Positions 1,791 to 60,683 of a stretch of DNA of 64,000 bases are shown here, in pieces. This stretch comes from Heterodontus francisci (lineage: Eukaryota). Each line of letters starts with the position of its first letter. Positions within the stretch are counted from its first letter, which is position 1. Made by a program: the position numbers and the translations under genes. The stretch covers positions 110,213,350 to 110,277,349 of the forward strand of contig NC_090379.1 in assembly GCF_036365525.1 (NCBI RefSeq). Direction: 5' to 3'. The notes under the pieces were generated by a model. That model was not told the origin of the DNA. It saw nothing but the letters and a program-made list of their open reading frames with translations, and ran no database searches.

Positions 1791-2846
1791 TCTATGGAAT
1801 GATCATCCATCATAAATTTATCAAAGCCTGACCATGCCTGGTACTTAATAGATCATCGTTTTACATTTTATGCATAAAGCTTAATAGAAGCTCCAAACCT
1901 TCCTCAATGTCCAACTGACAGGCCTTTAGCTCACAAGCCACTTGACACCAGATCGTGCTTTTGTCAGTCGGGGCAGTGCCAAGTTGATACCTTGTTTTTT
2001 CTTCAGTATGGACCTAACCCATGTCAACATATCTACTTCGTTTTTCTATTGGTCATTACATTCAGATTCAGAGAGCATCAGTGGGAAATCATACTGACAC
2101 TTTACATTTGGTTTCAGCCATTCATTTCAAGAGTGATTCAGCTGACAACCTTCCCTCTGAATAAAAACTCTTAGTTTCCAATGAACACCTTTAGAGAATC
2201 ATCCTCTTCCATCACGTTAAATAGATCCAAGTCAACAGTGAAGATTGAAACTAGATGTAAACAATTTTTCTTGATGCCCTGTTTATTCATAGGATACAGA
2301 ATTACACAACTCTACCTCTGTACACCAACAGCACTTGTATCAAGCAGGCTCTCTTGATATTTACTTTAAATCCTTAATTGAACAATGCCTGTCAGCTCTT
2401 TACCTTTAACAACATAATTAACCAAGAACACGCCAGAGGAGATGAGGTTAGTGATGATCTGGGAAACAAAGTAGATGCAGTGATCTGCTGCAGAATGTTG
2501 TGGAGAGTGAACAGATGAAGAAGCACTGCAACCAGAGTCAGTGATAGAAAGGTAGCTCTGCTTCTAGGTGATCTGCTTTAATCATTTAAATAATTTAACA
2601 ATTGCAGTGAATGGATATTTGACTGCATTCTTCAGCTGCTCTCTGAATTTAGTCTGGGTCACATAAATACAGGTGTTGGTGCAGGTGCTCAAAATCTGCA
2701 GCATGTAGCCAGATTGTTCAGTGATATATACAGGATCATGGGGACGTGTGTAATATAAAATGTCAGCAATTCGACAATAAAGAAAATGTAGAACATTTGT
2801 CATCCATAACAATATAAAACTTTCAGATATAGTGAACATTAAAATG

Positions 2847-3839
2847 TTATAAAATTATACAGATGATTTGGAGTTGGGGACCACGTGTAGGGTGTCAAAG
2901 TTTGCAGATGACACTAAGATGAGTGGCAGGGCAAAGTGTGCAGGTGACTGTGAAACTTTGCAGAGGAACATAGATACATTGAGTGAGTGGGCAAAGGTCT
3001 GGCAGATGGAATACAATGTTAATAAATGTGAAGTCATTCATTTTGGTAGGAATAACAGTAAAAAGGATTATTACTTGAATGGTAAAAAGTTGCAGCAAGC
3101 TGCTATGCAGAGGGACCTGGGTGTCCTTGTGCATGAATCGCAGAAGGTTGGTCTGCAGGTACAGCAAGTAATTAGGAAGGCAAATGGAATTTTGTCCTTC
3201 ATTGCTAAAGGGATTGAGTTTAAAAGCAGAGAGGTTATGTTGCAGCTGTATAAGGTACTGGTGAGGCCGCACCTGGAGTACTGTGTGCAGTTTTGGTCTC
3301 CTTACTTGAGAAAGGATGTACTGGCACTGGAGAGGGTGCAGAGGAGGTTCACTAGGTTGATTCCGGAGTTGAGGGGGTTGGCTTATGAGGAGATACTGAG
3401 TAGATTGGGATTATATTCATTGGAATTCAGAAGAATGAGGGGTGATCTTATAAAAACATATAAAATTATGAAGGGAATAGATAAGATACAAGTAGAGAGG
3501 CTGTTTCCACTGGCAGGTGAAGCTAGGACAAGAGGGCATAGCCTCAAGATTAGAGTGAGCAGATTTAGGACTGAATTAAGAAGGAACTTCTTCACCCAGA
3601 GGGTTGTTAATCTATGGAATTCCTTGCCCAGTGAAGTAGTTGACGCTTCTTCAGTAAACGTTTTTAAAGCTAAGGTAGATATCTTTTTGAACAATAAAGG
3701 AAATAAGGGATACGGTGAGAATGCGGGTAAGTGGATCTGAGTCCATGAAAAGATCAGCCATGATCTTATTGAATGGCGGAGCAGGCTCGAGGGGCCAGAC
3801 GGCCTACTCCTGCTCCTAGTTCTTATGATCTTATGATCT
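2847..3839 (+). mobile_element. 5'-truncated CR1/HER1-like LINE inserted in GPCR exon 2
   Basis: RT C-terminus (KFADDTK, LVRPHLEYCVQFWSP, RRMRGDLI, FTQRVVNLWNSLP), 3' UTR and terminal CTTATGAT repeats; absent from paralogs B and C. Confidence 0.95.
2868..3740 (+). CDS. Uninterrupted partial CR1 ORF2 reverse transcriptase (C-terminal 290 aa)
   Basis: ORF track; FADD catalytic motif; no stops. Confidence 0.75.
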   Translation: MELGTTCRVSKFADDTKMSGRAKCAGDCETLQRNIDTLSEWAKVWQMEYNVNKCEVIHFGRNNSKKDYYLNGKKLQQAAMQRDLGVLVHESQKVGLQVQQVIRKANGILSFIAKGIEFKSREVMLQLYKVLVRPHLEYCVQFWSPYLRKDVLALERVQRRFTRLIPELRGLAYEEILSRLGLYSLEFRRMRGDLIKTYKIMKGIDKIQVERLFPLAGEARTRGHSLKIRVSRFRTELRRNFFTQRVVNLWNSLPSEVVDASSVNVFKAKVDIFLNNKGNKGYGENAGKWI

Positions 3840-4519
3840 TCTCTGGGTCAGTGTGATTCTCACTCTTTCTGTGATCCAGTAGTTTCCTGCGGACTCTGTT
3901 GCCCACTAAAATGTGTCTGACAGTCAGTGCATTGAGCAGTAAAATCAGAAGGAATGGAAGGAAAGGGGTTAAAATCATACTGAGGCTTTGAAATGCTACC
4001 CAGGCAGCTTCGGTGTAAAAGCTCAGCGATTCAATTGCCCCCTAGGATACATTGTCAATTATATATTCAGGTTCATATATAAAGTACCAAGGAATATTTT
4101 TGAAGCAGAACAGCACACTCACTGTCGTTGCAATTACAGTCACAGTTTTCTCTGTGCAATATTTTGCTTTCATTTTCTGGCAACAAATTGCAACAAATCG
4201 ATCAAAGGTGAAAGCAACAGTGAACCAGACAGAAATATCTGTGGCTGCAGAAAGCAGGACATGTATGAGAGAACATGCAGGTGTGGTGTCCAGGTAAGTA
4301 CCTGGGAAATGAAAATGAATAAGTGTAAACAATATCACATCAGTGAAAACGACCAGTAGATCTGCCATTGCCATGGCCACCAGGTAGTGGGTGATACATT
4401 TGGAGAGTCCGCACTTTCCTGGTGACAGGATCAGAATGGCCACTGAGTTAACTGAAATAAATGGAACAAAACACAAGATAATTATAGTTGCCATCTCAGA
4501 AAGCATGAAAATTTCATAG

Positions 4520-5690
4520 GAACTGAAGGACTTTAGAAGAGGAGTTGGCCATTCAGCCCATCGAACTTGTTATACCATTCAATTGGATTATGGCTGATCC
4601 ATACCTTAACTTTATTTATCTGCCTCGGTTCCATAAACTTCAATACTCTTGCTATGCATATACTGCCTGCTATGTTTCCTGCATGACAGCAGTGACTATG
4701 CTTCAAAAATTCTCTATTGGCTGTGAAGCGCTTTGTGATATCTAGCTGTTGTGAAAGCTCATATATAAATGCAAGTCATTTACTTCCTTTTTCTTTCTAA
4801 CAACAATCTCATTTTTGAAATTTTGAATGGACCTAGCCATAACAGCTTTTTTGGGGAGAGAGTTCAAGATTTCCACTATTCTTTGTTTGAGATATTGCTT
4901 CCTGAAAGCCGAGCTCCAATTTTAAGGTTATGTCTCCTTCTTCTGGACTCCCCCAACAGAGGGAACGGTTTCTCTCCATCTACCTTATCAAATCCTTTAA
5001 TTATCAGAGGCAATTCAACTGTTGACACTTACTCTTCCATATTCAAGGGAATACAAGCTGGGTCGATGCAACCTGTGCTCATAATTTAATCCTTTCTGCA
5101 TCGATACCAGTATTGTGAAACTGCGCCTCACCTCCTCCAAGACGAATATATCCTTCCTGAGGTGAGGAGCCCAGAACAGAATGCAGTTACTTTAAATGGG
5201 GTCTAACCAGAGTCTCTACAGCTGTAGCCTAACTTCCACGCCTTTGTATTCCAGCCAACCTTGAAAAAAAGGATAACATTCCATTCGACACTTCAATGAT
5301 TTTTTTAAATATATGTATCAACGAGCTTTGAATGATTTCTGTATTTGAACGCAAAAGCTCTCATGTCTCATCCACAGTTCCTAACTTGTCCTGATTTAGA
5401 AAAACTTTGATCTATCCTTCTTCGGTCCAAATTAGATGACCTCACAATTTCCTGTGCTCATTTCCATCTGCCACAGTTTTGCTCACTCACTTAATTAACT
5501 GATGTCCCTTTGCAACTTTCAGCTCCCATCTAACTTTCTGTCATCAGCAACTTAGATACGTGACTCTCTGTTCCATCATCCAAGTTATTAATTGATACAT
5601 TGAAGAACTGAGACTCCCTTATGTATGACATTAGTTACTGTCTCAAAAAATTCAATGAGGTTAGACATGATTGTCCATTTACAAATCTAG
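4520..5690 (-). mobile_element. Old CR1 3' remnant in the GPCR intron, homologous in the introns of B and C
   Basis: Reverse complement of CR1 3' UTR and RT C-terminus; same position in all paralog introns. Confidence 0.7.
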
Positions 5691-6977
5691 TTACAGATAG
5701 GGATCCCAGTGAGCAAAGGAGTTACATATAATAATCTGAGAGGCAAAAAATTCCCGCTATTGATAACATGGAAAAGGCAAATATAGCTAGGGATTTAAGA
5801 GAGCATAGGACTTATGGACTTGGATCCCAAAAGCAATACATGTTTGTGAAAAATGTAATGGAATTGAAAAAAGAGACTTGCTTTTAGTAGCACCGTTCAT
5901 GGCCTCGCCCTTCCCCCACCATCTCCCGCGTCCCACCCCCCCGCCCCGCCCAAAGTGATTTACATCCAACGAAGTGCATTTTCCTTTGAAATGTAGTCAC
6001 TGTTATAATGTAGGAAATGCAGCAGCCAATTTGCACACAGCAAACCCCCATAAACATCAATGTGATAATAACAATGAATGCTTCACCATATAGATCATTT
6101 GTAAATTTTTCATTATTTTGTTCCGGAGATATTGTTTTGGAAATTGGTAAAGAAAGGATAGCATGAATCCGAGCAAGTAGCAGACAGGAAGAATCAGGGA
6201 AAGAGAAAACGAGGGCACAATGTTTAGTGAAGAAGATGAATTTCAGAATTAAATCAGATTTTGCTGTTGTAACAGAGTTGAAAGTGTGTGAGCAGAGCAG
6301 GAAGATGAGGAGATGGAAGAAAAGCTGATGGTTGATGAACTTGGGTTTCAAAATTGGACAGTTCCTGACAGTTGAAGAGACACAACCCTGGTGGTCCAGT
6401 TATTTATAGGATAGGGACAGTCTACCTGCTCAAAATATTTCTTCCATAGTATTGAGTGGAATATATCTGGTTAAAAGTCTTTGGTATGGTGTAATTTGCT
6501 GCACCAAGCCTATTTCCTCTTGTCACCATTTATGGTCACACTTTCACACCGACATTTAGTATTGGATCTTCTGATGTAAACATTCTGAATGACATTTCCC
6601 TATGTAATCAGTTACATTTTACGGTTTGTTGATGAAGCAATTGAATGACTCAAAATGGTTTTTGAACAATGTCTGGAATTTATTCTAATAACTGAAATTT
6701 GTAAACACTAAAATATGGTTTTGAACAGAATTTGAAAATTCAAAAAGGATACATTTCAAAATAATATAATTAAATTTACATTGCAAAAGGTATTTGTTTA
6801 CATTAAATTGTTAAGTAGCTTACCAAGAACTCCAACAACTGCAAGAAATGGATAGTAAATGTCTTCTATCTGGTGGAATATTGTTGGTTCACGCATTTTC
6901 TGTGAGATGTGATAGCTTTTGTCGATGCTGGAGGCAATAGCTCTGCCTAATTGCACAATGCATCCAGAGGAACCTTG

Positions 6978-7022
6978 TATTTATACAGAAGGGAAATCTC
7001 TAGTGACATGCCTGTTGCATCA
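6978..7022 (-). promoter_or_regulatory. Paralog A promoter: TATAAATA (6978-6985), kB-like GGGAAATCTC (6991-7000), C/EBP-ATF TGATGCAAC (7014-7022)
   Basis: Motifs ~80-125 nt upstream of the ATG; conserved with identical spacing in B and C. Confidence 0.65.
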
Positions 7023-7603
7023 TCATTACTATTAATTACAATTAATTGAACAAACAAGTAGAATCAATCATGTGAAAACTTATATACGCATCATGGAATA
7101 AAATGTATTTAACTAGAGCTTACACAGACTTACAGTAAGATATTCCATTGAAAATATAATTGCATGTGAGCCTCCCAGAGGAAAATTATTGATCTATTAA
7201 GCATAGGTAGTTTCATCGATGGTATTGAAATTTTCTGTGGACCGTACCCTCTCAAATCAATATAAAATGTCTGTAATATTTGGACAATTTGTAATGTATT
7301 TTCTTGTGTATTTGATACCAAAAGAGTTGAAAAAAATAATTTCTCTGCTTTGCAAATCAAGGAACTTCAGTATTAAAAAAATTAAACTTCTTGAAAACCA
7401 GATTTACTATTACAATAAGTAATCATAAAGGGCTTATAAATTATAGATGGTGCTACCTGTGAACACTTGTGTGTTGGAACAACAACCTGTATTTCTAAAC
7501 CACCTGTAACATAGAACAATGTCCCAACGTGCCTTACAGAGACATAATGAAGATGGCACTGAGCAAAAGAATGAGAGATGAGGAAGGATGACCAAAGCTT
7601 CAC

Positions 7604-7902
7604 CATTTCAAAAACAGGGGGCATAGATTTAAGGTAAGGGGCAGGAGATTTAGAGGGGATTTGAGGATTTTTTCTTTTCCCAGAGGGTGGTTGGAATCTG
7701 GAACACACTGCCTGAAGGGGTGGTAGAGGCAGGAACTCTCACAATATTTAAGAAGTATTTAGATGAGCACTTGAAACGCGATAACATACAAGGCTACGGG
7801 CCAAGTGTTGGAAAATGGGATTAGATTAGATAGGCGCTTGATGGCCATGACGGACATGATGGACAGAAGGGCCTGTTTCTGTGCTGTATAATATTGACTC
7901 GA
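7604..7902 (+). mobile_element. Short CR1/HER1 3' fragment
   Basis: GGCATAGATTTAAGGTAAGGGG...GGGCCTGTTTCTGTGCTGTA tail; empty site visible at the homologous position near 62120. Confidence 0.75.
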
Positions 7903-8489
7903 TGAAAGAGATGGGTTTTAAAGAGGGTCAATGCCTTTGTCACTTACAGATTCAGCCAGGTTACCATCATCCACATTCTACGAACTTCAGCTTATCTGAA
8001 AATCTACAGTCCAACTGTAAGCCCATACTAGTCCTTTGCACTAAATATCCCTGTCCCTGTTGACCCACATTGGTCTCTGTTCCTTCCAAGAATGAAATTT
8101 AAAATGATCACCCATGTTTAAATTCCTTTGCAGCATCACCTGTCCCTATTGCTGTAACTCCACACCTTCTACCCCAGCCCAGAATTGTGTTTTTCTCTGA
8201 CTCTGGTCTTTTGTGCACCTCTCCCTCCATCTGACCCACTTTCATGACCAAGCCTTCACACTCTGGAATTCCCTCCCTTATCCCCTCTGCCTCTTTATCT
8301 CCCTCTCCTTTTTCAGTCCCCCCATAAAACCCACCTCTTTGACCGAGTTTTTGGTCGCCCTTCTTAATATCTCTTTTAATCCAATGCCTTTGTTTGCATG
8401 ATTATTCCCCTGAAAAGCTATTTGTGATGTTTTTCTATGTTAAAGGTGCCATGTAAATGCAAGTTGCTGCAGTTGTTCTATTAGTGTCC

Positions 8490-8900
8490 GCCTTGTCTCA
8501 CTAGTGGCACTGATGTTTCTCAGTCTTCATGGTGTTAAGTTGAAGTCCCACTTCAGGACTGAAGTAAAAAACTCATTGATGATAATTCGGTGTAGTACTG
8601 AAGGAGTGCTGCATTGCCGGTGGTGCTGTCTTTCAGTTAAGACGAGAGACTGAGACCGAGTCAGTCTTCCCAGATATACATAGAAGAGACCAGGGCATTT
8701 TTTTCAAAAAGAACAGGGCCGGTAAAAGAAAGCACTTGCATTTATGCAATGGTTTTCACGACCTCAGGACATTCCAAAGTAATTTTCATTGAATTAGGTT
8801 ACTTTTCTCTAAGTTCTCCTGGTTTCCTGGACATTATTTATCACTCAACCAACAACATGGAAAACTGATTATCTGGCATCATTAATTTGATGGTGAGCTT
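8490..8900. mobile_element. Decayed DeuSINE-like SINE fragments
   Basis: GTGTAGTACTGAAGGAGTGCTGCATTG...GGTGCTGTCTTTCAG resembles the Deu core as recalled. Confidence 0.4.
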
Positions 8901-9916
8901 GTCTCTTGGCCAATTAAGGGGGCATCCCTGTGAAAATCATATTGACTGCCCTTCACTTCCATCTCCCCCCAACCCCGGGACTGGTTTGGCACCTGGAAAC
9001 ACTCCTGACATCGTCACGGCCACCCCGCCGCTCGGCAACAGGACCTCCACTTCAGTATGTAAACTATGTGGGAAATGCATGGAAAGGTAATGTAATTGAT
9101 TTTTGTGAAACGTTCACTTACCTTTCCAGGCAAAGAACAGCCCCAACTCAAACGTAAAATTCCTTTTTTACAGGAGAGACAAGCATTCCTTCCTGGGAGA
9201 GTTCATTTCCTTGTCTGCAAACCCAAATCTCCAACATCAACTGGCTTTTAGCTGCTCCTGTGGTCTTCTTCACTGCAAAATTGAAACTGACATCTTGTTA
9301 ACAGAAGTCATAAGACTGTCATAAATTCTTCCTGTTGCTTTGATACAAGTTTACAGCCTGCACCTCAAACACAAAATGTCAACATTCAAGGCTCACTATT
9401 GACAGAATGTCCTTTTTTTTCAGTTAGAGGCACACAGACCTCTTAGTGTAAAAAACAAAATTCTTAGGACAACGTCGATGCTGACCTTTTGAGAAAGGCA
9501 GCTGCCGATATATGAGAAGTGTTCAACCACTTCTAAAGTCTTCCCTTCAATATCAATAGCTGGAGCTTTAAATTCTTGTCTAGGGAAGGGCTGGTGTCTT
9601 GCTCATGTTTAGTTGAGAGATCAAACATTTGTATGCAGAGCTCGAGGTTGGCTTGAATGTCACTTGCAATGTGGGCCACAACTGTGCAGTCATCGACATA
9701 TTGTAAATAGTGGATATGCTGGAGGGTCAACTTAATCTTGGTTGTCAGTTGTTGAGCTTCTCATCAAGTCGAAACTGTGTCGTCACCCCTTGTGCAAGTT
9801 AGCCATAAATTAGTTCCATGAAGAGAGTAGGCACAATCGCACAACCTTGCTTGACGCCCGTCCAGGTACGAATGGGCTCAGCCTGCAAATCATTGCAAAG
9901 TTTGCTGTCATACCAT

Positions 9917-10268
9917 TGGCGCAGTGGTTAGCACCGCAGCCTCACAGCTCCAGGGACCCGGGTTCGATTCTGGGTACTGCCTGTGCGGAGTTTGCAAGTT
10001 CTCCCTGTGTCTGCGTGGGTTTCCTCCGGGTGCTCCGGTTTCCTCCCACATGCCAAAGACTTGCAGGTTGATAGGTTAATTGGCCATTATAAATTGCCCC
10101 TAGTATGGGTAGATGGTAGGGAAATATATAGGGACAGGTGGGATGTGATAGGAATATGGGATTAGTGTAGGATTAGTATAAATGGGTGGTTGATGGTCGG
10201 CACAGACTCGGTGGGCCGAAGGGCCTGTTTCAGTGCTGTATCTCTAAAACTAAAACTAAAAACTAAAC
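9917..10268 (+). mobile_element. tRNA-derived HE1-like V-SINE
   Basis: A box TGGCGCAGTGG, B box GGTTCGATTC, V-domain GGTTTCCTCCGGGTGCTCCGGTTTCCTCCCAC, LINE-like tail with (CTAAAA)n. Confidence 0.9.
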
Positions 10269-10321
10269 GATGATGCAGAAGTCATGCAAGTCTCTGGAAA
10301 ACTTTCCAAAGGGCTTTGCAA

Positions 10322-10633
10322 TTTTTTTTTATTTAGAGATACAGCACTGAAACAGGCCCTTCAGCCCACCGAGTCTGTGCCGCCCAACAACCACCCATTT
10401 ATACTAACCCTACAGTAATCCCATATTCCCTACCACCTACCTACACTAGGGGCAATTTACAATGACCAATTTACCTATCACCTGCAAGTCTTTGGCTGTG
10501 GGAGGAAACCGGAGCACCCGGCGAAAACCCACGTGGTCACAGGGAGAACTTGCAAACTCCGTACAGGCAGGATCCAAAATTGGATCCAGGTCGCTAGAGC
10601 TGTGAGGCTGTGGTGCTAACCACTGTGCCGCCC
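10322..10633 (-). mobile_element. HE1-like V-SINE, inverted relative to its neighbour
   Basis: Reverse complement of the same family. Confidence 0.9.
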
Positions 10634-13438
10634 CAGGGCTTTGAGATTGATAGAATCAAATGCACTGACAGATCAATAAAGGTCACGTAGAGCTCTTTGC
10701 AATGCTCCACACATTTTTCTTGAATTTGTTGAGCGACCCGGATAATGTCTGCGGTCCCCCTGGATGGTCAGAAATCACATTGGGTCTTTGTAAGGATGTC
10801 ATCGCAGACAGATAAGAGGCAGTTCAGGAGGATTCATGTGAGACATGCCTCTATAATGCCCACAAATCGATTTTTCACCCCTCTTAAAAAGTGACACAAT
10901 GATGGCACTATGAAAGTCGGAACGCAGTATCTCTTCTTCCCAGATTTTTGTCAAAAGGTCTGAGAGTTTGAGCAAGATTTCATGACCAACAGCTTTATAG
11001 ATCTCTGAAGGAATGTTGTCCTGACCACACACTTTGTTATTTTTCATCTGTTATATAGCCTTTAGTAACTCAGCAAATGTTGGCAGCATATATAAATTTG
11101 ATCCTCAAGCTGTTGAGGGATTATTTTAGTGGTTTGTCCAATTCTGTAGCCTTCCGATTGAGAAGGTTTGGGCAGTGCTCCTTCCAACGGTCTTGGATGG
11201 TTGCATCACCTTTGAGAAGAGTATTGCCATCTTCAGCTTGGATGGGGGGATGGACCATTTGTTTTTGGTCTGTAGATGGTCTTGGTGGCTGGAAGAAGCT
11301 GCACATTGTCGTATCTATCTGCGTAACACTGGATTTCATTGGCCTTCTCGACCCACCACTTATTCTTGATGTCATACGTCATTCTCTGAGCTTATGATTT
11401 GATTAGTAAATATTCTTCTCGTTTCTGTTGAGATCTAGGCTGATTTTGACATATAAAGAAGGCTTAGCATTTCTGATTGAGAAGTTTGTATATTTCTTTT
11501 TCTTCCTTGTAAGTCTGTGGTCTGTCCAGCAGTCATTTGCACCCCGCACGGCTCAGGTCAGAATGGTATCCTTCCTATCCTGGCTCAAATAATGACAGAG
11601 TCCAGGAGGTGCCAATGCTTGGATCAGCGATGTTGTCTTGCATTTATCTTTCTGCTGAAAGAGTGTGTTTGTGATGGTGAGCCCATGGTCAGTGCACTTG
11701 GCGAGGAGGAGGAGCCTTTTGATTTTCCCATTCCTACTTTCGCATTGGTGCCCTTCCAGATGGAGTAATTATGTCCAACTCTGGCACTAAAGTCTCCCCG
11801 TCTTGTTTTGAGACTGCTGCCAGAATAGAATCCAGATCTGCTTAAAAGAGCTCCTTGGTTTCGTCAGTAGAATCGAGAGTGGGAGCATAAACACTGATGA
11901 TTGTGGCTTACTGGTTGACACTAAGCTGAAGCCGTAGGCTCATGAGTGATTTATTAATGACAACTGGATGTTCCAAAAGTATATCTGTGATTCTATTTTT
12001 GATGTCAAACCTAACTCCCTGGATACGAATATCCTCCTCTGGTTTCCCTTTGCAGAAGAAAGTGTATCCTCCTCCTTCTTCTCTAAGCTGGCCTACTGCA
12101 GGGTTTCAATGACAACAGCAACATCGATGTTATATCTCATAAGCTCCCGAGAAATTATGGCAGTTCTCCTTTCAGGACATTAACTGTTTTGATTGTTAAT
12201 ACAGTCGTGCATGTTCCAGATACAGAAATACATGCGTTTTTTTGCTTGTGTGTCTTTTTGGCCACAAGGATCATGGTCCCACTGTGTGTGGTTCCCTGGT
12301 CAGGACAGTTTGGGACAGCCTATGTTTGTGGCATCTTTTCCAGCCCCTTTCTCAAGTGAGGTGAGCAGAGGGGATCCTCTGGATTGCTCAGTCATGGATC
12401 CTGCTGCTGAGGAGTTACTTCTATCCCAAATCCAAGAGCTCAGTGACCATCAGGCATCCACCACCTACTTGCAGATTTGTGACCAGAGACATCCAGGTTC
12501 ACAGCCCTGTGCCCGATGCCACTTGTCCATCGCCAGATGGCTTTTTGGTGTTCCTGGCAGAGGACTGTGTGTGTCATCTTTTAAAGTGAGGTACTCTGTG
12601 CACAGTTGACAATTGCGCAGTCTTGACGGGTTTACATTCTTTACCCAATGGCATGGCAAGCCATGATGACTGGAGAGTATCAGTCCCACTGCAGCCTTCA
12701 TCTGCCTCCACAGCCATTGATGTGAACACATGCCTCATTCATCTGCATGTTCCACCATTGAGGTCTTGAAACGCATGTTGTTATTGAGGTTCACAAATCT
12801 AGATACGCCCATATCAATGTAGCAGAGTCACCTCACTCAGGTTTTAGCTGGTACAGTCTTGGTGGAAAGACAATCAGTGAGCAGAGCCACTATCAATCCA
12901 CCTTCCTGGGAAGTGACAACCAATCCCAGTGGAAAGCCCAAGAAAAAGAAATATGGAATGCAGATACAGCAAGCAATTAGGAAATCAACTGGCATATTGG
13001 ATTTTATTTAAGGGGACTGGAGTATATGAATAAAGACTTCAAAAGGAAATTGGATGGCCATTTGAAGGAAATAGACTTGCAGGGCTATGGCAATTAAACG
13101 GGGGAGCGGGAATGAGTGACCTTCTCTGTCGTGAGCCAGCATGGACTCAATGGGCCAAATAGTCTCCTGCTGTGCTTTAAAAGACTCTATGACACTACGT
13201 CTTGTGACAATTGTACAAGGCTTTGGTGAGACCACACCTGGAATACTTAAGGAAGGATATACTTGCCTTGGAGGCAGTACAGCCAATGTCCACTGGATTG
13301 GTCCCTGGGATGAGAGGGTTATCCTGTAATGAGAGGCTGAGTAAATTGGGTCCATATTGCCTGGACTTTAGAAGAATGAGTGGTGATCTCATTGAAACAT
13401 ATATATTCTGAAGGGGCTTGGCAGGTAGTCAGAGAGGT

Positions 13439-16400
13439 CTCTTTTACCTTATTCACATTCATTGCTTTCTATTTCCCTCCTGGTGTTTGATAAAGTGTCT
13501 ACCAAAACTCGTTTTCACAGCCACATCTCCTTCCTCAGTGACTGTCTCTGGCTGCAACTTATTCCATGTGGATTCCAACTGAAGTTTCATCCTTCATGTT
13601 TTGAATCCACCCAGGATTACAGGTATCTCTGAGAAATACAATATTCCTCGGACTGCTGTTCTTGCTGCATCCTGAGATCCATACTCAGTGCCTTGCACCG
13701 CCACATGTACACATTGGACTTCTCTCTCCAGCAGCACCACCTCACCTTATCTCAAAGTTGTTCTGCTCCACAGTTTCTTTCCATCCTTCGACTTATCTGA
13801 CACATTCACAGAAAACTTTTTTCTTCCTTTCAGGTGTTAAGGAACACAAACTCCAGCAGCTGATGGGGACTAGTGCCCCTCCAGATCTTCCTTCCCCTTC
13901 ACTTCCCTCTGACCCCATCGCTTCTGATCTGACCCCTTGCCGTAAATTCAATATACCTTCTGACCTTCCCCTTGCTGATGCTGACCGTTCAGTACTCAGC
14001 AAAGGACTCAGTTTTATCCCCTGTCGCCCTCACCTCAATGAATTTCGCGCTCGGCATGACGTTGAGCTCTGCTTCCATCGCCTTCACCTCTGGGCTTACT
14101 TCTTTGACCAGGAGTCCTCCCCCCAACCAGCAGACCCATTCACTGGCCGCCAGCATTCTCCCTCCACCTGGACCCCTCCCTCTGGCCTCTTACCCACTCT
14201 TGATCTTTTCGCTGAAAACTGTTGGTGAGACATCGGCCATCTCAGTTTCTCTGCTCCCCTCACTCCCTCGAACCTGTCCCCCTCTGAACTTGCTGCACAC
14301 CGTTCTCTTAGGTCAAACCCCGAAATTGTGATCAAAACTGCAGACAAGGGTGGTTCTGTTGCTGTCTGGCGGACCGACTTCTACCTTGTGGAGGCTGAGC
14401 GTCAACTCTTAGACACTTCTTCCTACCTCCCCCTGGATCAAGACCCTACCACCGAACATCAAGCTACTATCCACAGGAATTCCACAGACATCATCTCCTC
14501 TAGAGATCTTCCCTGTACAGCTTCCAACCTCATAGTCCCACAAACCCGGACAGCCCACTTCTATCTCCTTCCTAAAATCCACAAACCGGACTGTCCTGGC
14601 AGACCCATCGTTTCAGCCTGTTCCTGCCCCACTGAACTTATTTCTTTCTATCTTGACTCTATCTTTTCTCCCCTGGTCCAGTCTCTTCCCACCTACATCC
14701 ATGACTATTCTGACGCCCTACGTCATTTTGACAATTTCCAGTTTCCTGGCCCCAACCGCCTCCTCTTCACTATGGTCTCAGGGCTCTCCACTTCTTCCTT
14801 GAACAGAGGCCCAACCAGTCCCCATCCACCACCACCCTCCTCCGCCTGGTTGAACTTGTTCTCACATTGAATAACTTCTTCTTTAACTCCACTCACTTCA
14901 TTCAAGTAAAAGGATTTGCTTTGGGTACCCGCATGGGTCCTATTAATGCCTGTCTTTTTTTGGGATATGTTGAACATTCCTTGTTCAGTCCTACTCAGGG
15001 CCCCTCCGCCAACTCTTTTTCCGGTACATTGATGATTGCATTGGTCCTGTTGCCTGCTCCTGCCACGAACTGGAAAACTTTATCAACTTTGATTCCAATT
15101 TCCACCCTTCTCTCACCTTTACATGGTCAATCTCCGACACTTCCCTTCCCTCATCGACTTCTCTGTCTCCATCTCCGGGGATAGGCTCTCTATTAATATT
15201 CATTATAAGCCCACCGACTCCCACAGCTACCTAGACTACACTCTTCACACCCTGCCTCCTGTAAGGACTTCATTCCTTTCTCCCAGTTTCTCCATCTCCG
15301 ACGCATCTGCTCTGGTGATGCAACTTTCCACAACAGCGTTTCTGATATGTCCTCCTTTTACCTCAGCCGAGGATTCCACCCCACTATGGCTGACAGGGCC
15401 CTCAACTGTGACCTGCCCATTTCCTACACTTCTGCCCTCACCCCTTCCCCTCCCTCCCAGAACCATGACAGGGTTCCCCTTGTCCTCACTTTCCACCCCA
15501 CCAGCCTCCATATCCATATCATCCTCTGCCATTTCCGCCATGTCCAGTGTGATGTCACTACTAAGCGCAACTTCCCCTTCCCTGTCAGCATTCCGAAGGG
15601 ATTGTTCCCTCTGTGACATCCTGGTCCACTCCTCCATTACCCCCAACACCTTGTCTCCTTCCCATGGCACCTTCCCATGCAATCGCAGGAGGTGTAATAC
15701 CTGCCCTTTTGCCCCCTGTCTTCTCACTATCCAAGGCCCCAAACACTTCTTTCAGTTGAAGCAGCGATTTACTTGTACTTCTTTCAAATTAGTATACTGT
15801 ATTCGCTGCTCACAATGCGGTCTCCTCTACATTGGGGACACCAATTGCTGATTGGGTGACTGCTTTGTGGAACACCTTCGCTCAGTCCAAAAACATGACC
15901 CCGAGCTTCCTGCCGCTTGCCATTTCAACACACTCCCCTGCTCTCATGCCCACATCTCTGTCCTGGACTTGCGGCAGTGTTCCAGTGAACATCAACGCAA
16001 GCTCGAGGAACAGCATCGCATTTACCGATTAGGTGCGCTACAGCCTGCCGGACTGAACATTGAGTTCAATAATTTCAGAGCATGACTGGCCCCTTTTTTT
16101 TTTAGTTTTCTCTTTTCTTCTTTATTATTTTGATTTTATTTTAGTTTGTTCAATCATTCACTTTTTACCATGTGCCTGACCACTGTTTGTTTTCATGTTT
16201 GTGCTTTTGCCAGGGCTGTTCATTATTCTGTCTTTTAACACCCTCTCTGCACTAACACATTCTCTTTCACGACACAATTAACACACCCTTTGCCTTTGCT
16301 CCATGACCTTCTGGTCAGTTATTCACTGTGACCATCTGTCATATCAACAACTTCCCTTTTGTTATATTTTGCCACACCCCCACTTTATTTGCTTAAACCC

Positions 16401-16550
16401 TATTACATTTCTAACCTTTGGCAGTTCTGATGAAAGATCACTGACCTGAAATGTTAACATTCTCCACAGATGCTGCCAGACCTGCTGAGTATTTCCAGCA
16501 ATTTTTGTTTTTATTTCAGATTTCCAGCATCTGCAGTATTTTGTTTTTAT
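13439..16550 (+). mobile_element. Penelope-like retroelement (RT + GIY-YIG), frameshifted, nested in a CR1 fragment
   Basis: IKTADKGG, FYLLPKIHKP, GTRMGP, RYIDDC, HYKPTDSH, VYCIRCSQCGLLYIGDT; 15-bp flanking repeat GGTAG(T/A)CAGAGAGGT at 13424-13438 and 16551-16565. Confidence 0.92.
16423..16458 (+). ncRNA. Degenerate minimal type I hammerhead ribozyme motif in the PLE 3' region
   Basis: AGTT-CTGATGA-A-AGATCA-C-TGACCT-GAAA-TGTT-AAC: both core boxes, helix II with one mismatch, short helix I. Confidence 0.55.
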
Positions 16551-16825
16551 GGTAGACAGAGAGGTTGTTTCCCTTGGCTGGGGAATCTAGAACATGGGAG
16601 AACAGTCTCAGGATAAGGATCATTTAGGATTGAGATAAGAAGAAATTGCCTCAATCAACGGATTGTGAATCTTTGGAATTCTCCTCCCTTGAGGGTTGTG
16701 GATGCTCCAACATTGAGTATATTTAAGACTGAGATAGACAGATGTTTGTTCTCCCAGGTATTCAAGGGATATGAGGAGCTGAGAGGGGGTGGGGGTGGGG
16801 GGGTAAGTAGAGTTGAAGCCAAAGC

Positions 16826-17750
16826 TGTTACTGACAGGTGATAAGAGGTGTGGGTAGTTCTGACGGTTCATCTTCCAACTGACCACAGCAAGTGCTTGTG
16901 TTACTAGGGTTTTAACGCCTTTGTGTTTTATTTGTCAAATAATCAGACAGAAACAGGTTTTCCTGTGGGTTCAAAACAAAAAAGTAACTATTTATTGAAC
17001 AATATTCATTCGCCAAATTGTTGCTAGCGCCCCCACCGATGCATTCTCTCTCTCTCTCACACACCCATACACAAACACAAAAAAGATAGGAAAAGGGGTA
17101 AGTGGTTTGAAGTGAGGGAAGTGTTCAGGGTTCATGGTAAAATTGTTGAATTTTCTTGGAGGTCAATTTCTCTTTTAAAGTTGTGGGCCTGGGTTGTTTC
17201 TAGATTTTTCTGATGGTTGAGATTTCAGTCTGGAGATGGTGGTCACTCGCAGTTCCCTACTGCAGCAAGTTGAAGGATAGAATTCATAGCAGGGCTCCTT
17301 CTTTGGCTTTTGATGGGTGTCACAGCTCCTGGCTGGACAAGCTTTTATGATGTTCTTCTGATTATCTTCTTCTCTCTCCAGAGAGCTACTTTTTAAGATA
17401 AAAGTCTCTCACATGTTGCCTCTGTTGGGAGTCACAGATCCCCCTCCCTATGTTGAATAACAATGGCCAGGATGTGATGACTTCACACATTCCTTGTTTC
17501 AGAAGAATATATTCAATTCAAAAATGTCTCTTGGTGGCTTTACGATGGGTGTAATTGACACCTCTTAGCTTGGAATGTATCCTTTTGCCCTTAACAGACA
17601 ATAAGACAGTTTGAAAATACAGGCAGGTTGTTTGATCTTCAGTGGCCATTTTGCAGGACATTGACAACTTTTTAAATGAAAAAGTAAATGTTTCGAACTC
17701 TTCAGTTTGGGTTCTGTATTTTCATCATTGCACTTCTTGTGACCGTGACA
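16826..17750 (-). mobile_element. Solo LTR (~925 bp) in a CR1 3' UTR
   Basis: TGT...ACA termini; related to the LTR-like sequences at 52980-54004 and 63084-63270; CR1 tail resumes after it. Confidence 0.65.
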
Positions 17751-17854
17751 AAACTGAACCATGATCATATTAAAAAGTGGAGCATTCGATGGGCAATATT
17801 GCCTACCCCTACTCCTATTTCTTTTGTCCTTCTGTTCTTGTGAAAGGTCGACAC

Positions 17855-18202
17855 AAAGAACAAAGAACAGTACAGCACAGGAACAGGCCATTCGGCCCTC
17901 CAAGCCTGCGCCGATCTTGATGCCTGCCGAAACTAACACCTTCTGTACTTCCGGGGCCCATATCCCTCTATTCCCTTCCTATTCATATGTTTGTCAAGAT
18001 GTCTCTTAAACGCCGCTATCGTATCTGCTTCCACCACCTCCCCTGGCAGCAACTTCCAGGCACTCACCACCCTCTGTGTAAAAAGCTTGCCTCGCACATC
18101 CCCTCTAAACTTTGCCCCTCGCACCTTAAACCTATGTCCCCTAGTAACTGACTCTTCCACCCTGGGAAAAAGCTTCTGTCCATGTCGCTCATAACTTTGT
18201 AA
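17855..18202 (-). mobile_element. CR1/HER1 3' fragment
   Basis: TRGHRFKVRGAKFRGDVRGKLFTQRVVSAW plus 3' tail. Confidence 0.85.
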
Positions 18203-18719
18203 ACCCTGAAACCCTGAAACGTTAAGTCTGTTTCTCTTTCCACAAATGCTGCCTGATCTGTTGCCAAGATTTTCTGATTTTATTATGGAAGATTATACTT
18301 CAGGCATCAGCAGTGTTTTCATCTACTTCCTTTAAATCCTGGGATGAAAACTGCCTAGTCCTAAGGATTTGTCAGTCTTTAGTGCCATTATTTTCTTCAT
18401 GACTGTTAATTTGCTTGCATTAATTTTGGTGAATCCCCATCCTTGATTCAATATTAGTTTCCTTCAGATGTCCTGCACGCTAACCTCTTCCTCTGTTGTA
18501 AATACTGATGCAAAGAAATTATTTAACCTATCTGTCATTTCTATATTTTCATTTATAATTTCATCATCATCAATTTTAAGATAAGGAGTCCACATTTCTC
18601 TTAACCACTCTCTTTTTCCAAATATAAATTTAAAACATTTTTGTGTTGATTTTGATATTCTTTGCAAGTTTCTTTTCCTACTCCCTTTTTGTAACTCTTA
18701 CTGATTGTTGTGTCCCTTC

Positions 18720-19930
18720 CAAATACTGAATGGGGATAGGAGGGGGCAGATGTATTTGGTGGTGGCAGCAAGCGTGTGCTGGCAGAAATTGCAGAGAATG
18801 ATCTGTTCAACGTGGAGGCTGGTGGGGAAACCTATCATGGTTCTGGAGGATTGAGGACAGAAGTGTGTGAAATGGGATGAAAATTGTAAAGGGCCTTAAT
18901 ATCCTTGGTGAATACAAATCCTCGGTGGAAGAAATCGAAAGGCTTAAGGTGTGGAAGTGGTATCATCAGAACTGAGGTGATGGACACAGAGGAACTGCTA
19001 GCATAGTTAAGGAAGTGGATTGGGAGCATGGAAATCAAGGTAGCTGTGGGAGTCAGTGATTTTGTTTCAATCTTGCATGGGATCTAGGCATCACTGGCAA
19101 GGCCAGCATTTGTTGCCCATCCCGAATTGTTCTTAACAACTGGGTGACTTGCCGAGCCATTTCAGAGGACTGTAAAAAGTCAACCACATTGCTGTGGGTC
19201 TGGAATCACATGTAGGCCAGATCAGGTAAGGACAGCAGATGTCCTTCACTACAGGACATTTGTGAACCAGATGTGGATTTACAACATTCGATGATAGTTT
19301 CATGGCATCATTAATGATACTAGTTTTCAATTCTATTAGTTAATCGAATTCCATGAATTAATCGAATTTAAATTCCACCAGTTGCCATGGTGGAATTTGA
19401 ATCTATGTCACCGGGGAATTATCCTGGGCCTCTGGATTCCTCATCCAGTGACATTACCACTATGCCACTGTCTCCCCGCATAGATATTGTCTGACGGCCT
19501 ATTACCTGAAATGAAGATAGAGAAGTTGCGGAAGGGAAGAGAAGAGTTGGTGATGGAGCTGGTTAAAGTGAGGCGTGGGTTCAAATTTTAATGCAAAGCT
19601 AATGAAACTGAAAAGTGTTAAATTGATGGAGAGATTCTGGTGAGACACAGATATAGGTTGGATGAGATTGGGCAGGGAGTGATAAACTATTCTCAAGATA
19701 GGAAGAAATAAGTTCGAGGTGACAAGAACAGGCTCATCCGATAGGTCTACCAGAGCAGCCCTGTTTGTGAACCTTGGAAAGGAAGGCAGGATGAGCAGAG
19801 TTGGGAGCTTTGAGCCCAGAGGCCAAAGTTGGAAAATCTCCAGAACAGATGAGGTCACTGATCGTCTGAGAATCAAAGTAGTTGCTGTGATCTGTTGCAG
19901 ACTTGTGTGGAGTGTAAACATGTGAAGAAG
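18720..19930 (-). mobile_element. Old Penelope-like remnant 3' of GPCR B, interrupted by another repeat at ~19070-19480
   Basis: Minus strand KVHKQGCSGRPIG*ACSCHLELISSYLE, matching the PLE RT at 14570-14660. Confidence 0.7.
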
Positions 19931-19970
19931 CCCTGTAACCAGAATCAGTGATAGAAAGGTAGCTCTGATT

Positions 19971-20890
19971 TTAGGTGATCTGCTTTAATTGTTTAACCAA
20001 TTTAACAATTGCAGTGAATGGATATTTGACTGCATTCTTCAGCTGCTCTCTGAATTTAGTCTGAGTCACTGCATAAATACAGGTGTTGGTGCAGGTGCTC
20101 AAAAGCTGCAGCATGTAGCCAGATTGTTCAGTGATGTATGCAGGATCATGGGGACCTGTGTAATAAGAAATGTCAGCAATTCGCCAATAAAGGAAATATA
20201 GAACAGTTGTCATCCATAACAGTATAAAACTGCTAGATATAGTGAAGAGTAAAATGATGGATTTCCTTCGGTTCTCCATCTCTGGGTCAGTGTGACTCTC
20301 ACTCTTGCTGTGATCCAGTAGTTTCCTGCGGACTCTGCTGGCCACTAAAATGTGTCTGACAGTCAGAGCATTGAGCAGTAAAATCAGAACGAATGGAAGG
20401 AAAGGGGTTAAAATAGTACTGAGGATTTGAAATGTTACCCAGGCAGCTTCGGTGTAAAAGCTCAGTGATTCAATTGTCCCCCAGGGTACATTGTCAATTA
20501 TATATTTAGGTTCATATATAAAGTACCAAGGAATATTTTTCAAACAGAACAACACACTCATTGTCATTACAATCGCAGCCACAGTTTCCTCTGTACAATA
20601 TCTATTTTTCAGATTCTGGCAACAAATAGCAACAAATCGATCAAAGGTGAAAGCAACGGTAAACCAGACAGAAATGTCTGTGGCTGCAGAAAGCAGGACA
20701 AGTACGAGAGAACGTCCAGGAGTGGTGTCCAGGTAAGTACCTGGGAAATGAAAATGAACAAATCCAAACAGTATCACATCAGTGAAGATGACCAGTAGAT
20801 CTGCCACTGCCATGGCCACCAGGTAGTGAGTGATACATTTGGAGAGTCCGCACTTTCCTCGTGACAGGATCAGAATGGCCACTGAGTTAA
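19971..20890 (-). CDS. GPR139-like: GPR139-like GPCR paralog B exon 2, duplicated copy lacking its native exon 1
   Basis: Open frame TM1(part)-TM7, DRF, NTCIY; TTCCAG acceptor at 20891; intron cut by the duplication junction at 22715. Confidence 0.8.
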
Positions 20891-25617: not shown

Positions 25618-25698
25618 TTTCTGTGAGATGTGATAGCTTTTGTCGATGCTGGAGGCAATAGCTCTGCCTAATTGCACAATGCATCCAGAGGAACCTTG

Positions 25699-25743
25699 TA
25701 TTTATACAGAAGGGAAATCTCTAGTGACATGCCTGTTGCATCA
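25699..25743 (-). promoter_or_regulatory. Duplicate of the paralog A promoter module
   Basis: Same sequence as 6978-7022. Confidence 0.65.
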
Positions 25744-28989: not shown

Positions 28990-29042
28990 GATGATGCAGA
29001 AGTCATGCAAGTCTCTGGAAAACTTTCCAAAGGGCTTTGCAA

Positions 29043-36472: not shown

Positions 36473-36576
36473 AAACTGAACCATGATCATATTAAAAAGT
36501 GGAGCATTCGATGGGCAATATTGCCTACCCCTACTCCTATTTCTTTTGTCCTTCTGTTCTTGTGAAAGGTCGACAC

Positions 36577-36924
36577 AAAGAACAAAAAACAGTACAGCAC
36601 AGGAACAGGCCATTCGGCCCTCCAAGCCTGCGCCGATCTTGATGCCTGCCGAAACTAACACCTTCTGTACTTCCGGGGCCCATATCCCTCTATTCCCTTC
36701 CTATTCATATGTTTGTCAAGATGTCTCTTAAACGCCGCTATCGTATCTGCTTCCACCACCTCCCCTGGCAGCAACTTCCAGGCACTCACCACCCTCTGTG
36801 TAAAAAGCTTGCCTCGCACATCCCCTCTAAACTTTGCCCCTCGCACCTTAAACCTATGTCCCCTAGTAACTGACTCTTCCACCCTGGGAAAAAGCTTCTG
36901 TCCATGTCGCTCATAACTTTGTAA
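36577..36924 (-). mobile_element. CR1/HER1 3' fragment, duplicate
   Basis: Copy of 17855-18202. Confidence 0.85.
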
Positions 36925-41809: not shown

Positions 41810-41882
41810 CAATAACTCCAACAACTGCAAGAATAGGATAGTAAATGTCTTCTATTTGATGCAATATTGTTGATTCACGCAT
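41810..41882 (-). CDS. GPR139-like: Paralog B exon 1 (MRESTILHQIEDIYYPILAVVGVI, 73 nt)
   Basis: ATG at 41882; G|GTAAGC donor; phase 1 joins exon 2 in frame. Confidence 0.9.
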
Positions 41883-41963: not shown

Positions 41964-42008
41964 TTTTTATACAGGAGGGAAATTTCCAGTGAGATGTCAG
42001 TTACATCA
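41964..42008 (-). promoter_or_regulatory. Paralog B promoter: TATAAAAA (41964-41971), GGGAAATTTCC (41977-41987), TGATGTAAC (42000-42008)
   Basis: Same spacing as in A and C; kB-like site is palindromic here. Confidence 0.65.
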
Positions 42009-42893
42009 TCATTAATATTAATTACAGTTCATTGAACAAACAATTGGAGACAATTATGTGAAATCTCACATGCTTATCACGGAATAAAAAATAATTAATT
42101 GGAGCTGGCACTGCCTTAAATGATGCTATTCCATAGAAAATATAATTGAATATGACCCTGATAGAGGGGTATTTTTTATCTGTGGCATTGAAATTTTCTA
42201 TGGACCATGTCCTTTCAGTTCAGTATTAAATGTCAGTATTTTTTAGACATTAGTATTGTTTTTTGACACAGAAAAAGTTAGCAAAACGTATTTCTGTGCT
42301 TTGCAAATCGAGGAGCTTAGGTATTAAAATATACACTTCTTGCAAACCTCATTTTCTACTTTGCAATCAGTAATCTTAAAGGACCTATACATTATAGATG
42401 GTGATACCTGTGGACACCTGTCTGTTGGAACAACAACTTGTATTTATACACCACCTATAACATAGAACGATTTCCCAAAAGCCTGACATAATCCGAAAAA
42501 AGATGGTGCTGAGCAAACGAATGAGAGATGAGGAGGGGTGACCATAGATTCATAAAATAGATGAGTTTAAAAGCCAGTCCATGCTGTTGTCACTTTCAGG
42601 TTTAATTATTCCGATACTTTCCCAGCTCGGCTCCTATTCTGCACATTCTAATAACTTCAGCTCATTGGAAAACTTCAGCCCATGTCGCTACACGCACCAA
42701 GTCCCTCACACTTATCAGTCCTATCCCTGTTGCCCTACATTTTCTTCTTGTGCTCCCATGGCTTCTAGCTCTCTGATGCCTCAAATTTAAAATGATCACC
42801 CCCATGTCTATACCCTTGCAGCTTCCCTTGTTCCTATCTTTGTAACCTCCTACCTTCCACCTCATCCCAGAAGTGTTTGTTTCTCTGATCTCT

Positions 42894-48090: not shown

Positions 48091-48109
48091 ATAGAATCAT
48101 AGAGTCATA

Positions 48110-56461: not shown

Positions 56462-57399
56462 TCAATGATTGAAAGGTAGCTCTGCTTTTAGGTGATCTGC
56501 TTTAATTAATTTAACAATAACAGTGAATGGATATTTGACTGCATTCTTCAGCTGCTCTCTGAATTTAGTCTGGGTCACTACATAAATACAGGTGTTGGTG
56601 CAGGTGCTCAAAAGCTGCAGCATGTAGCCAGATTGTTCAGCGATATATGCAGGATCATGGGGACCTGTATAATAAGAAATTCTAGTAATTCGCCCATAAA
56701 GGAAAAATGCAACATTTGTCATCCATAACAGTATAAAACTGCCAGATATAGTGAACATTAAAATGATGGATTTCCTTCGGTTCTCCATCTCTGGGTCAGT
56801 GTGATTCTCACTCTTGCTGTTATCCAGTAGTTTCCTGCGGACTCTGCTGGCCACTAAAATGTGTCTGACAGTCAGAGCATTGAACAGTAAAATCAGAACG
56901 AATGGAAGGAAAGGGGTTAAAATAATACTGAGGCTGTGAAATGCTACCCAGGCAGTTTTGGTGTAAAAACTCACGGATAGAGTGGAGCCCCAGGGTACAT
57001 TGTCAATTATAAATTCAGGTTCATATACGAAATACCAAGGAATATTTTTCAAACAGAACAGCACACTCACTGTCGTTATAACCACATTCACAGTTTTCTC
57101 TGTGCAATATTTTGTTTTCAGCTTGTGGCAACAAATTGCAACAAATCGATTAAAGGTGAAATTGACCGTGAACCAGACAGAAATGTCTGTGGCTGCGTAA
57201 AGCAGGACATGTAAGAGAGAAACTGCAGGAGTGGTGTCCAGGTAAGTACCCGGGAAATGAAATGGAATAACTGTAAGCAATAATACATCAGTGAAAACAA
57301 CCAGTAGATCTGCCACTGCCATGGCCACCAGGTAGTGGGTGATACATTTGGAGAGTCCGCACTTTCCTCGTGACAGGATCAGAATGGCCACTGAGTTAA
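56462..57399 (-). CDS. GPR139-like: GPR139-like GPCR paralog C, exon 2 (spliced product 336 aa)
   Basis: Open frame with 7TM pattern; NRF in place of DRF; CAG acceptor at 57400-57402. Confidence 0.92.
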
Positions 57400-60175: not shown

Positions 60176-60529
60176 GGGCGGCACAGTGGCGCAGTGGTTA
60201 GCACCGCAGCCTCACAGCTCCAGGGACCCGGGTTCGATTCCGGGTACTGCCTGTGTGGAGTTTGCAAGTTCTCCCTGTGTCTGCGTGGGTTTTCTCCGGG
60301 TGCTCCGGTTTCCTCCCACAAGCCAAAAAACTTGCAGGTTGATAGGTAAATTGGCCATTATAAATTGTCACTAGTATAGGTAGGTGGTAGGGAAATATAG
60401 GAACAGGTTTGTTGGGAATATGGGATTAGCGTAGGAATAGTATAAAAAATGGGTGGTTGATGTTCGGCACAGACTCGGTGGGCCGAAGGGCCTGTTTCAG
60501 TGCTGTATATCTAATCTAATCTAAAATCT
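60176..60529 (+). mobile_element. Full-length HE1-like V-SINE with 8-bp TSD AATAATAT, in the paralog C intron
   Basis: GGGCGGCACAGTGGCGCAGTGG start, B box GGTTCGATTCC, (TCTAA)n tail; TSD at 60168-60175 and 60530-60537. Confidence 0.93.
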
Positions 60530-60610
60530 AATAATATACATTTCAAAATAACATGGTTAAATTTATGTACTCGAAGTTATTTGCTTCCATTAAATGTTTA
60601 ATTGGCTTAC

Positions 60611-60683
60611 CAAGAATTCCAATAACTGCAAGAACAGGATAGTAAATGTCTTCTATCTGATGGAGTATTGTTGGTTCACGCAT
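60611..60683 (-). CDS. GPR139-like: Paralog C exon 1 (MREPTILHQIEDIYYPVLAVIGIL, 73 nt)
   Basis: ATG at 60683; G|GTAAGC donor; phase matches exon 2. Confidence 0.9.

Follow-up and report, generated by a model that had tools for sequence, protein, structure and literature searches.

The stretch analysed here, 64,000 nucleotides of the Heterodontus francisci genome (RefSeq assembly GCF_036365525.1, contig NC_090379.1, positions 110,213,350 to 110,277,349; contig C9 in our numbering, 110.21-110.28 Mb, in a genome of 6.0 Gb), is referred to below as the window. Between positions 2582 and 60683 it carries five receptor units on the minus strand, termed A1, B1, A2, B2 and C. By profile match (PF00001/7tm_1) they are class A G-protein-coupled receptors (GPCRs), and the window covers part of a cluster that belongs to a very large family of such receptors, evolving by birth and death in cartilaginous fishes. 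An earlier interpretation made from the letters alone (the sequence-only reading) had reported five same-strand units in 58 kb, and all were located on the minus strand in the states it had described: a pseudogene (A1), an exon-2 copy (B1), a truncated copy of A (A2), and two intact units (B2 and C). The exon structure that it had noted is likewise common to the units, 73 nt of exon 1 being followed by an intron in phase 1 and by some 0.92 kb of exon 2, and its non-canonical motifs, LWMT in transmembrane helix 6 (TM6) and NTCIY in TM7, are present.

Exon 2 of A1 is split in two. Its 5' part (3840..4451, minus strand, as are all exons and promoter cores below) contains a premature TAG at 4042-4044, and its 3' part (2582..2846) runs from TM6 to helix 8, with the stop at 2582-2584. 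Between them, in the third intracellular loop (ICL3), lies an inserted fragment of long interspersed nuclear element (LINE) type reverse transcriptase (2847..3839, plus strand, open frame 2853-3737), which gives a weak RVT_1 match (E = 0.0011) under the Pfam cut-off. Exon 1 of A1 (6824..6896; 24 codons plus one base, with a GT donor) is preceded by a promoter core with forkhead-like, homeodomain-like and degenerate O/E-like sites and a TATA box (6979..7056). B1 consists of an exon 2 with intact frame (19971..20890) and has no exon 1 of its own, while A2 retains only the 5' half of exon 2 (22712..23172, with the same premature TAG as A1, here at 22763-22765), exon 1 (25545..25617) and the promoter core (25700..25777). 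The intact B2 comprises exon 2 (38693..39612, from the end of TM1 to the stop), exon 1 (41810..41882) and a promoter core (41966..42042, 44.7 bits); in C these lie at 56462..57399 (frame intact), 60611..60683 and 60766..60843 (29.9 bits). The phase-1 GT donors of exon 1 are at 6824, 25545, 41810 and 60611, and the five copies of exon 2 start at 4451, 20890, 23172, 39612 and 57399. In C the DRF motif has become NRF; substitutions of this type can increase the basal activity of class A receptors.

Self-comparison of the window revealed that A1+B1 and A2+B2 form one 18.7-kb block present twice in tandem (3991..22715 and 22712..41435), the copies being 99.8% identical with 35 mismatches. At the junction (22712..22717) an intron of B is joined to the middle of exon 2 of A, without gaps and with a few base pairs of microhomology, which accounts for both the missing exon 1 of B1 and the truncation of A2. 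Such a gap-free microhomology junction favours a real duplication event rather than an assembly artefact; the 0.2% divergence of the copies falls in the allelic range. Thus, the five units of the sequence-only reading are all present, but they represent three paralogues and a tandem duplicate rather than five genes. A public gene model of H. francisci (P0001, 100% identical) splices exon 1 of A2 onto exon 2 of B1, and this chimera is a predicted splice product. The three paralogues share 82-84% protein identity. B2 and C differ at 54 residues, two of which are in ICL3, as expected from the near invariance claimed for that loop, whereas a further 11 in ICL2/TM4 (residues 116-135) had been overlooked.

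The cluster comprises 44 exon-2 loci at 109.12-110.37 Mb of contig C9, all on the minus strand, and in 37 of them (36 of the 41 loci retrieved, plus C) the first 296 codons, the stretch by which intactness was judged, are free of stops and frameshifts. Exact motif matches extend the family across the genome: 1,670 were found for ICL3, 5,103 for TM7, 5,020 for TM3 and 8,904 for the end of exon 1 with its donor, against 0, 2, 0 and 0, respectively, for reversed-pattern controls. Among 29 TM7 matches checked, 27 are family genes, 19 of these with an intact exon 2, and 13 of 20 loci chosen by ICL3 on contig C21 are intact. Outside the cluster an unbroken exon 2 was seen in 32 of 47 sampled loci, a set picked by hand among the first 100 listed places and therefore non-random and biased toward intact motifs. 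The motifs also miss members: that of TM7 occurs in 13 of the 20 ICL3-chosen C21 loci and, among 68 distant representatives, in 29. Matches to exon 1 are more numerous than those to the exon-2 motifs, and they cannot be taken as gene counts, because only 7 of 20 exon-1 loci have an exon 2 within about 9 kb (13 do not, and 2 of the 20 have a second exon 1 instead) and 5 of 20 upstream regions have no exon 1 inside 10 kb. On a cautious reading, the family numbers at least about 2,500 and plausibly 5,000-9,000 loci, of which about two thirds are intact. The earlier description of a birth-and-death, diversifying ligand-sensing repertoire, as opposed to a housekeeping orthologue, is therefore supported on a far larger scale, that of thousands of loci. 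For comparison, ANF_receptor was matched 124 times (counted by exon) and V1R 4 times in the same genome. In a protein search the matches fell into 2,782 clusters (90% identity), the top 120 all being labelled shark or ray, and orthologues of the window cluster are present in several sharks and in rays. Family genes carry the database label 'probable GPR139' and are annotated singly.

Several local arrangements were seen in addition. On contig C21 (90 Mb) about 70 exon-1 matches fall in the first 7.6 Mb and promoter matches extend to 35 Mb; this receptor family seems to make up extensive parts of some chromosomes. At L142 and L143 (6.55 and 6.71 Mb of C21) two promoter and exon-1 cassettes are separated by about 7.8 kb that contain no exon 2, and these cassettes may be alternative first exons of a shared exon 2, like A2/B1 in the window. 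A subfamily with a longer exon 1 (L124-L127, L129 and L138-L140, on contigs C1, C7, C9 at 121 Mb and C21 at 1.0-1.7 Mb) has this exon made up of repeats, each about 14 residues long and bearing glycosylation-type N-x-T sites, which gives an extended N-terminus; an exon 2 lies inside 9 kb in only one of these eight loci.

The database label follows from GPR139 being the nearest solved structure (PDB 7VUG) both by sequence and by fold (predicted model with a mean predicted local distance difference test score of 92.7; by Foldseek E-value 7VUG comes narrowly first). The true GPR139 is a single gene on contig C24, 95-96% identical to other elasmobranch GPR139 and 88% to the human one, and the true GPR142 is a single gene on contig C26 (93%). 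In three trees GPR139 and GPR142 form a clade with 100/100 support and the family is outside it. The approximately unbiased (AU) test rejected a grouping of the family with GPR139 (p = 5e-47) and one with GPR139/142 that leaves out the single genes of GPR210 type (p = 0.023). Consequently, of the GPR139/GPR142-like assignment made in the sequence-only reading only the sister relationship stands; the proteins fall outside the GPR139/142 clade, the outcome which that reading had itself named as speaking against it. In the fullest tree the family is monophyletic (95/97) and sister to an amphibian and sturgeon gene (100/99) that is represented by a single entry for each species listed; the 25 matches include neither an amniote nor a teleost. 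In the two smaller trees a salamander gene on a long branch was unresolved inside the family, and the addition of frog, caecilian and sturgeon genes moved it to the sister position. The wider clade beside GPR139/142 contains three subtypes, including coelacanth and teleost genes (98/96). One gene of each of the two other subtypes was found in this genome, on contig C25 (grouping with the coelacanth and a teleost) and on contig C3 (with anchovy), and the phase-1 intron that follows TM1 in the family is present in the C25 gene as well.

Judged by these trees, the family is a cartilaginous-fish expansion of one subtype of the sister clade of GPR139/142. Rinne et al. 2019 (PMC6504862), in the text available, list under GPR139/142 an orphan GPR210 with three subtypes (GPR210A, GPR210B and an unnamed third) in coelacanth, gar and teleosts; the word 'shark' does not occur in that text, and theirs was the only paper listed in our literature search that uses GPR210 as a receptor name. 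The sister clade is probably GPR210, a name given here by position and taxon range only. According to the accessible part of PMC5430874, activation by Trp and Phe needs F3x33, H5x43, W6x48 and N7x38. The family has S/Y/N, S, W and Y at these positions, so that only W6.48 is kept; the alignment of the TM5 position (H5x43) is less sure owing to indels.

Selection was analysed by codon likelihood (own code) on the 37 intact exon-2 sequences of the cluster. With a single tree, a class with omega > 1 was strongly preferred (2ΔL about 203; 42 sites at posterior ≥ 0.95), and the positively selected codons were concentrated in the extracellular half (28/119, versus 14/177 in the intracellular half; Fisher p = 0.0003), in line with the clustering of differences that had been noted by eye. 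Gene conversion inflates this test, which was therefore discarded: recombination was significant (0 of 2,000 permutations, p < 0.0005), and synonymous divergence (dS) ranged from 0.06 in ICL3, TM7 and helix 8 to 0.23 in the second extracellular loop (ECL2). Because recombination is significant and dS is low there, the invariance of ICL3 is partly a matter of homogenisation. A recombination-aware test was then based on seven segments, each with its own tree and rate. ECL2 to the top of TM5 (p = 0.0018) and TM6-ECL3 (p = 0.00065) survived correction, ECL1 was marginal (p = 0.043), and the four intracellular and membrane-core segments gave p > 0.2. Positive selection hence holds after gene conversion is allowed for, in ECL2-TM5 and TM6-ECL3 only. 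Pairwise nonsynonymous divergence (dN) over gene-wide dS was 1.05 for the extracellular and 0.43 for the intracellular part, with dN/dS of 0.14-0.27 in TM7 and helix 8. Loci L027 and L029 are mosaics that resemble L012 over most of their length but L028 in TM6-ECL3; as far as these alignments tell, the most selected segment is swapped between paralogues.

Positions 84 and 163 align with C3.25 and C45.50 (numbering by alignment), which we take to be the cysteines of the class A TM3-ECL2 disulphide. A cysteine is kept at position 84 in 28/31 and at position 163 in 29/31 family rows outside the window subfamily, whereas in the cluster it is found in 1/37 and 0/37, respectively. Both positions are hypervariable in the cluster and are still selected in the per-segment test. 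Both cysteines are likewise missing from the cluster orthologues aligned from three further sharks and two rays, and the loss of the disulphide is therefore old.

To characterise the promoters, 30 upstream regions were reduced at 62% identity to 13 divergent ones (mean identity 43%), and 8 regions of the subfamily with the long N-terminus were held out. The 13 share a core of about 90 bp: GTTTGTTCA lies about 70 bp 5' of the TATA box, TGTAAyTAAT is next, and an O/E-like semi-palindrome is 11-13 bp 5' of the TATA box. We presume these to be a forkhead-like site, a homeodomain site and a site resembling an Lhx2/Ebf composite. In leave-one-out scoring, 11 of 13 promoters reached at least 14 bits (reversed controls at most 4.2), the A1 promoter, a member of the training set, scored 32.5 bits when left out, and all 8 held-out promoters scored 31-45 bits. 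With one exception, every sampled gene with an exon 1 carries the core, and subfamilies only 50-60% identical still keep it together with open frames. In the window promoters the forkhead-like and upstream homeodomain sites, the O/E-like half and the TATA box are retained. No core was found in the 20 kb that precede exon 2 in the single genes on C25 and C3 (exon 1 was located for C25 only). A kB-like 10-mer adjoins the TATA box of one promoter, that of B2; a reading of the promoter through this site was dropped, the site not being conserved across subfamilies.

The probe built on mouse Greek Islands in the available part of PMC5608512 consists of TAATTG, two bases and an Ebf site. TAATTG or TAATGA followed by two nucleotides and an Ebf-like site occurs at the same place before the TATA box in 4 of the 13 promoters (background 0.018 per promoter). 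Among spacers of 0-6, a spacer of 2 scores best, while a spacer of 0 also scores (3/13); TAATTG is at the same place in 5 of the 8 held-out promoters, and in most others of the 13 the composite is degenerate. An Lhx2/Ebf-type composite in the family promoters is to be regarded as a lead, not proof. By eye, V2R promoters (L151-L159, L162 and L164; contig C11, 108-116 Mb) show a TAAT site of their own adjoining a TCCC half-site, 5' of a TATA-like box, at a spacing that differs from that of the family core.

From these results a hypothesis regarding the family may be put forward: it would be an unrecognised chemosensory repertoire, whose members act combinatorially in chemosensory neurons to sense water-borne molecules, and we consider this somewhat better than an even bet. 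What the data show is that copies arise by tandem block duplication, exchange segments by gene conversion and in some cases decay, and that the intracellular face, TM7 and helix 8 are under purifying selection while ECL2-TM5 and TM6-ECL3 are diversified by positive selection. On the hypothesis, each receptor would bind a different water-borne small molecule or peptide through its extracellular pocket and couple to a common G protein. In the window cluster, loss of the TM3-ECL2 disulphide may have left both former cysteine positions free to diversify. Expression would be expected in scattered chemosensory neurons, most likely olfactory ones, under control of Lhx2/Ebf type, and the repertoire would be parallel to the shark V2Rs and much larger. 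A bolder form, which we put a little below even chances, is that of a fifth main olfactory receptor family of cartilaginous fishes, with an independent origin from an orphan of GPR210 type, several thousand intact genes in this shark, an Lhx2/Ebf code and expression in olfactory neurons that have no assigned receptor, and as such the largest known GPCR repertoire of any vertebrate.

A number of observations weigh against the chemosensory hypothesis. Gene conversion accounted for most of the single-tree selection signal; local pairwise dN/dS exceeds 1 in TM6-ECL3 only (1.61), the value for ECL2 being 0.62, where dS is high as well, and that for a set of 30 pocket positions chosen beforehand 0.96. 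The Ebf-like site is degenerate (TCAC-NN-GAGR), the window promoters have no homeodomain half adjoining it, and the counts of the composite come from promoters that share ancestry, hence are not independent, with thresholds set after the alignment had been inspected. The core was matched in none of 16 V2R upstream regions and at none of 4 V1R loci. Forkhead and Ebf sites fit lymphocyte regulation as well. This last point leads to the rival that we regard as unlikely yet the most serious, namely a set of diversifying immune or barrier sensors of microbial peptides or metabolites in leukocytes, gill, skin or gut, comparable to formyl-peptide receptors or MRGPRs. Clustered birth and death, extracellular positive selection and gene conversion fit it equally well; sites of the forkhead and Ebf types are active in B cells too, the kB-like 10-mer adjoins the B2 TATA box, and the V2R promoters lack the family module. 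The kB-like site, however, is not shared across subfamilies, and both the conservation of the homeodomain sites and the Lhx2/Ebf spacing speak for sensory neurons.

Less probable still is a mostly passive amplification, in which segmental duplication has multiplied a few functional receptors in a repeat-rich genome of 6 Gb and the copy number reflects drift and assembly redundancy. The 99.8% tandem blocks and identical copies, the orphan exon-1 cassettes at 2 of 20 loci and the 15 broken loci among the 47 sampled agree with it, as does the location of about half of the non-cluster matches (43/87) on contigs numbered 60 or higher, which may include duplicated haplotypes and also bears against the large repertoire that the chemosensory hypothesis assumes. 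Drift alone fits poorly with subfamilies that retain open frames and the promoter core at 50-60% identity, with the low dN/dS in TM7 and helix 8, with positive selection in two extracellular segments and with orthologues in several sharks and rays. We think it improbable that the family forms a non-chemosensory code for cell identity or for gamete or neuronal recognition, or a set of peptide-hormone receptors; the relationship of the wider clade to invertebrate peptide receptors (PMC12208981, in part, and atlas neighbours) and the expression of catshark v2r genes also in testis and rectal gland (PMC11979771, in part) speak for it, but endogenous ligands would rarely drive positive selection across thousands of paralogues. 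Duplicated GPR139/GPR142 receptors for L-Trp and L-Phe, as the database names and the best PDB match by sequence and fold would have it, are very improbable and largely refuted on phylogeny by the AU test and the separate single-copy orthologues; moreover, F3x33, H5x43 and N7x38 are not kept.

The expansion is described in no paper found in our literature search, most subscription papers being beyond its reach. 'GPR' does not occur in the main text, as available, of the catshark sensory paper (PMC11979771), nor 'receptor' in the zebra shark paper, and 'receptor 139' or 'gpr139' was not matched in the supplements of PMC10529500, PMC11589584 (all files but one) and PMC10116579. The whale shark paper (PMC8455134, in the part available) attributes to cartilaginous fishes a 'relative paucity' of GPCRs, a statement that a family of thousands under the name 'probable GPR139' overturns whatever its function. 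Syed et al. (PMC10116579), in the accessible text, report very low numbers of OR, TAAR and V1R genes in sharks, a catshark V2R co-receptor that marks 5.94 cells per mm lamella, called a moderate frequency, and TRPC2 and Go that mark all neurons; from the difference between the two, catshark olfactory neurons with no assigned receptor may remain. Sharks are renowned for their sense of smell, and with this family at hand the view that they have few olfactory receptors can be tested directly on olfactory RNA-seq that already exists. The new results are that the family stands next to GPR210-type genes and has an orthologue in amphibians and sturgeon, its size in this genome, the recombination-aware selection test, the lost disulphide and the shared core of the promoters.

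B2 was also compared with three sequencing runs from a single sample, guessed to be RNA and of unrecorded tissue, and the outcome is not used as evidence. Contig pieces cover exon 2 in all three runs; run X1 has two close pieces (189 nt with 2 differences and 160 nt with 6), and the other listed exon-2 pieces, about 81-91% alike to B2, are paralogues. Several pieces stop at the start of exon 2, some unique intron bins are uncovered, and no joint bridging exons 1 and 2 of B2 was among the joints listed (29 more are unlisted). As for repeats, a decayed retroelement with frames like reverse transcriptase and a cysteine-rich endonuclease, presumably Penelope-like by eye, lies in each copy of the duplicated block (13600-15850 and 32320-34570, plus strand). 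Frames at 44616-44975 (minus) and 49710-50341 (plus) resemble fragments of Harbinger-type transposons by eye. A 26-bp upstream satellite was looked for in the window and not found. Repeats of about 350 bp resembling short interspersed nuclear elements (SINEs) form inverted pairs at 9914-10629 and 28635-29350, with extra copies at 47064-47364, 60184-60533 and 62409-62750.

Compared with known systems, the family has in common with GPR139/142 the 7tm_1 fold, the conserved W6.48 and a sister relation in all trees, but it is only 21-25% identical to them, has F109, H187 and N271 replaced, and counts thousands of copies against one. The TM3-ECL2 cysteine pair is missing from the GPR139/142 rows, whereas most family members have it. 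As described for the GPR210 orphans, three subtypes are placed beside GPR139/142 in our tree; unlike those orphans, the third subtype numbers thousands in cartilaginous fishes and has a promoter core that was not found upstream of the C25 gene. Neither OR, TAAR, V1R nor V2R membership was seen, only 7tm_1 being matched at E ≤ 0.01, and the V1R and ANF_receptor genes are separate loci. The family nevertheless resembles these repertoires in clustered birth and death, a mostly short N-terminus, and a variable extracellular pocket over a constant intracellular face, may do so in homeodomain and O/E-like promoter elements, and differs from them in two coding exons and an independent origin beside peptide and amino-acid receptors. 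If half of the motif matches are distinct genes, it would exceed the 1,948 ORs of the elephant given in the available text of PMC11979771.

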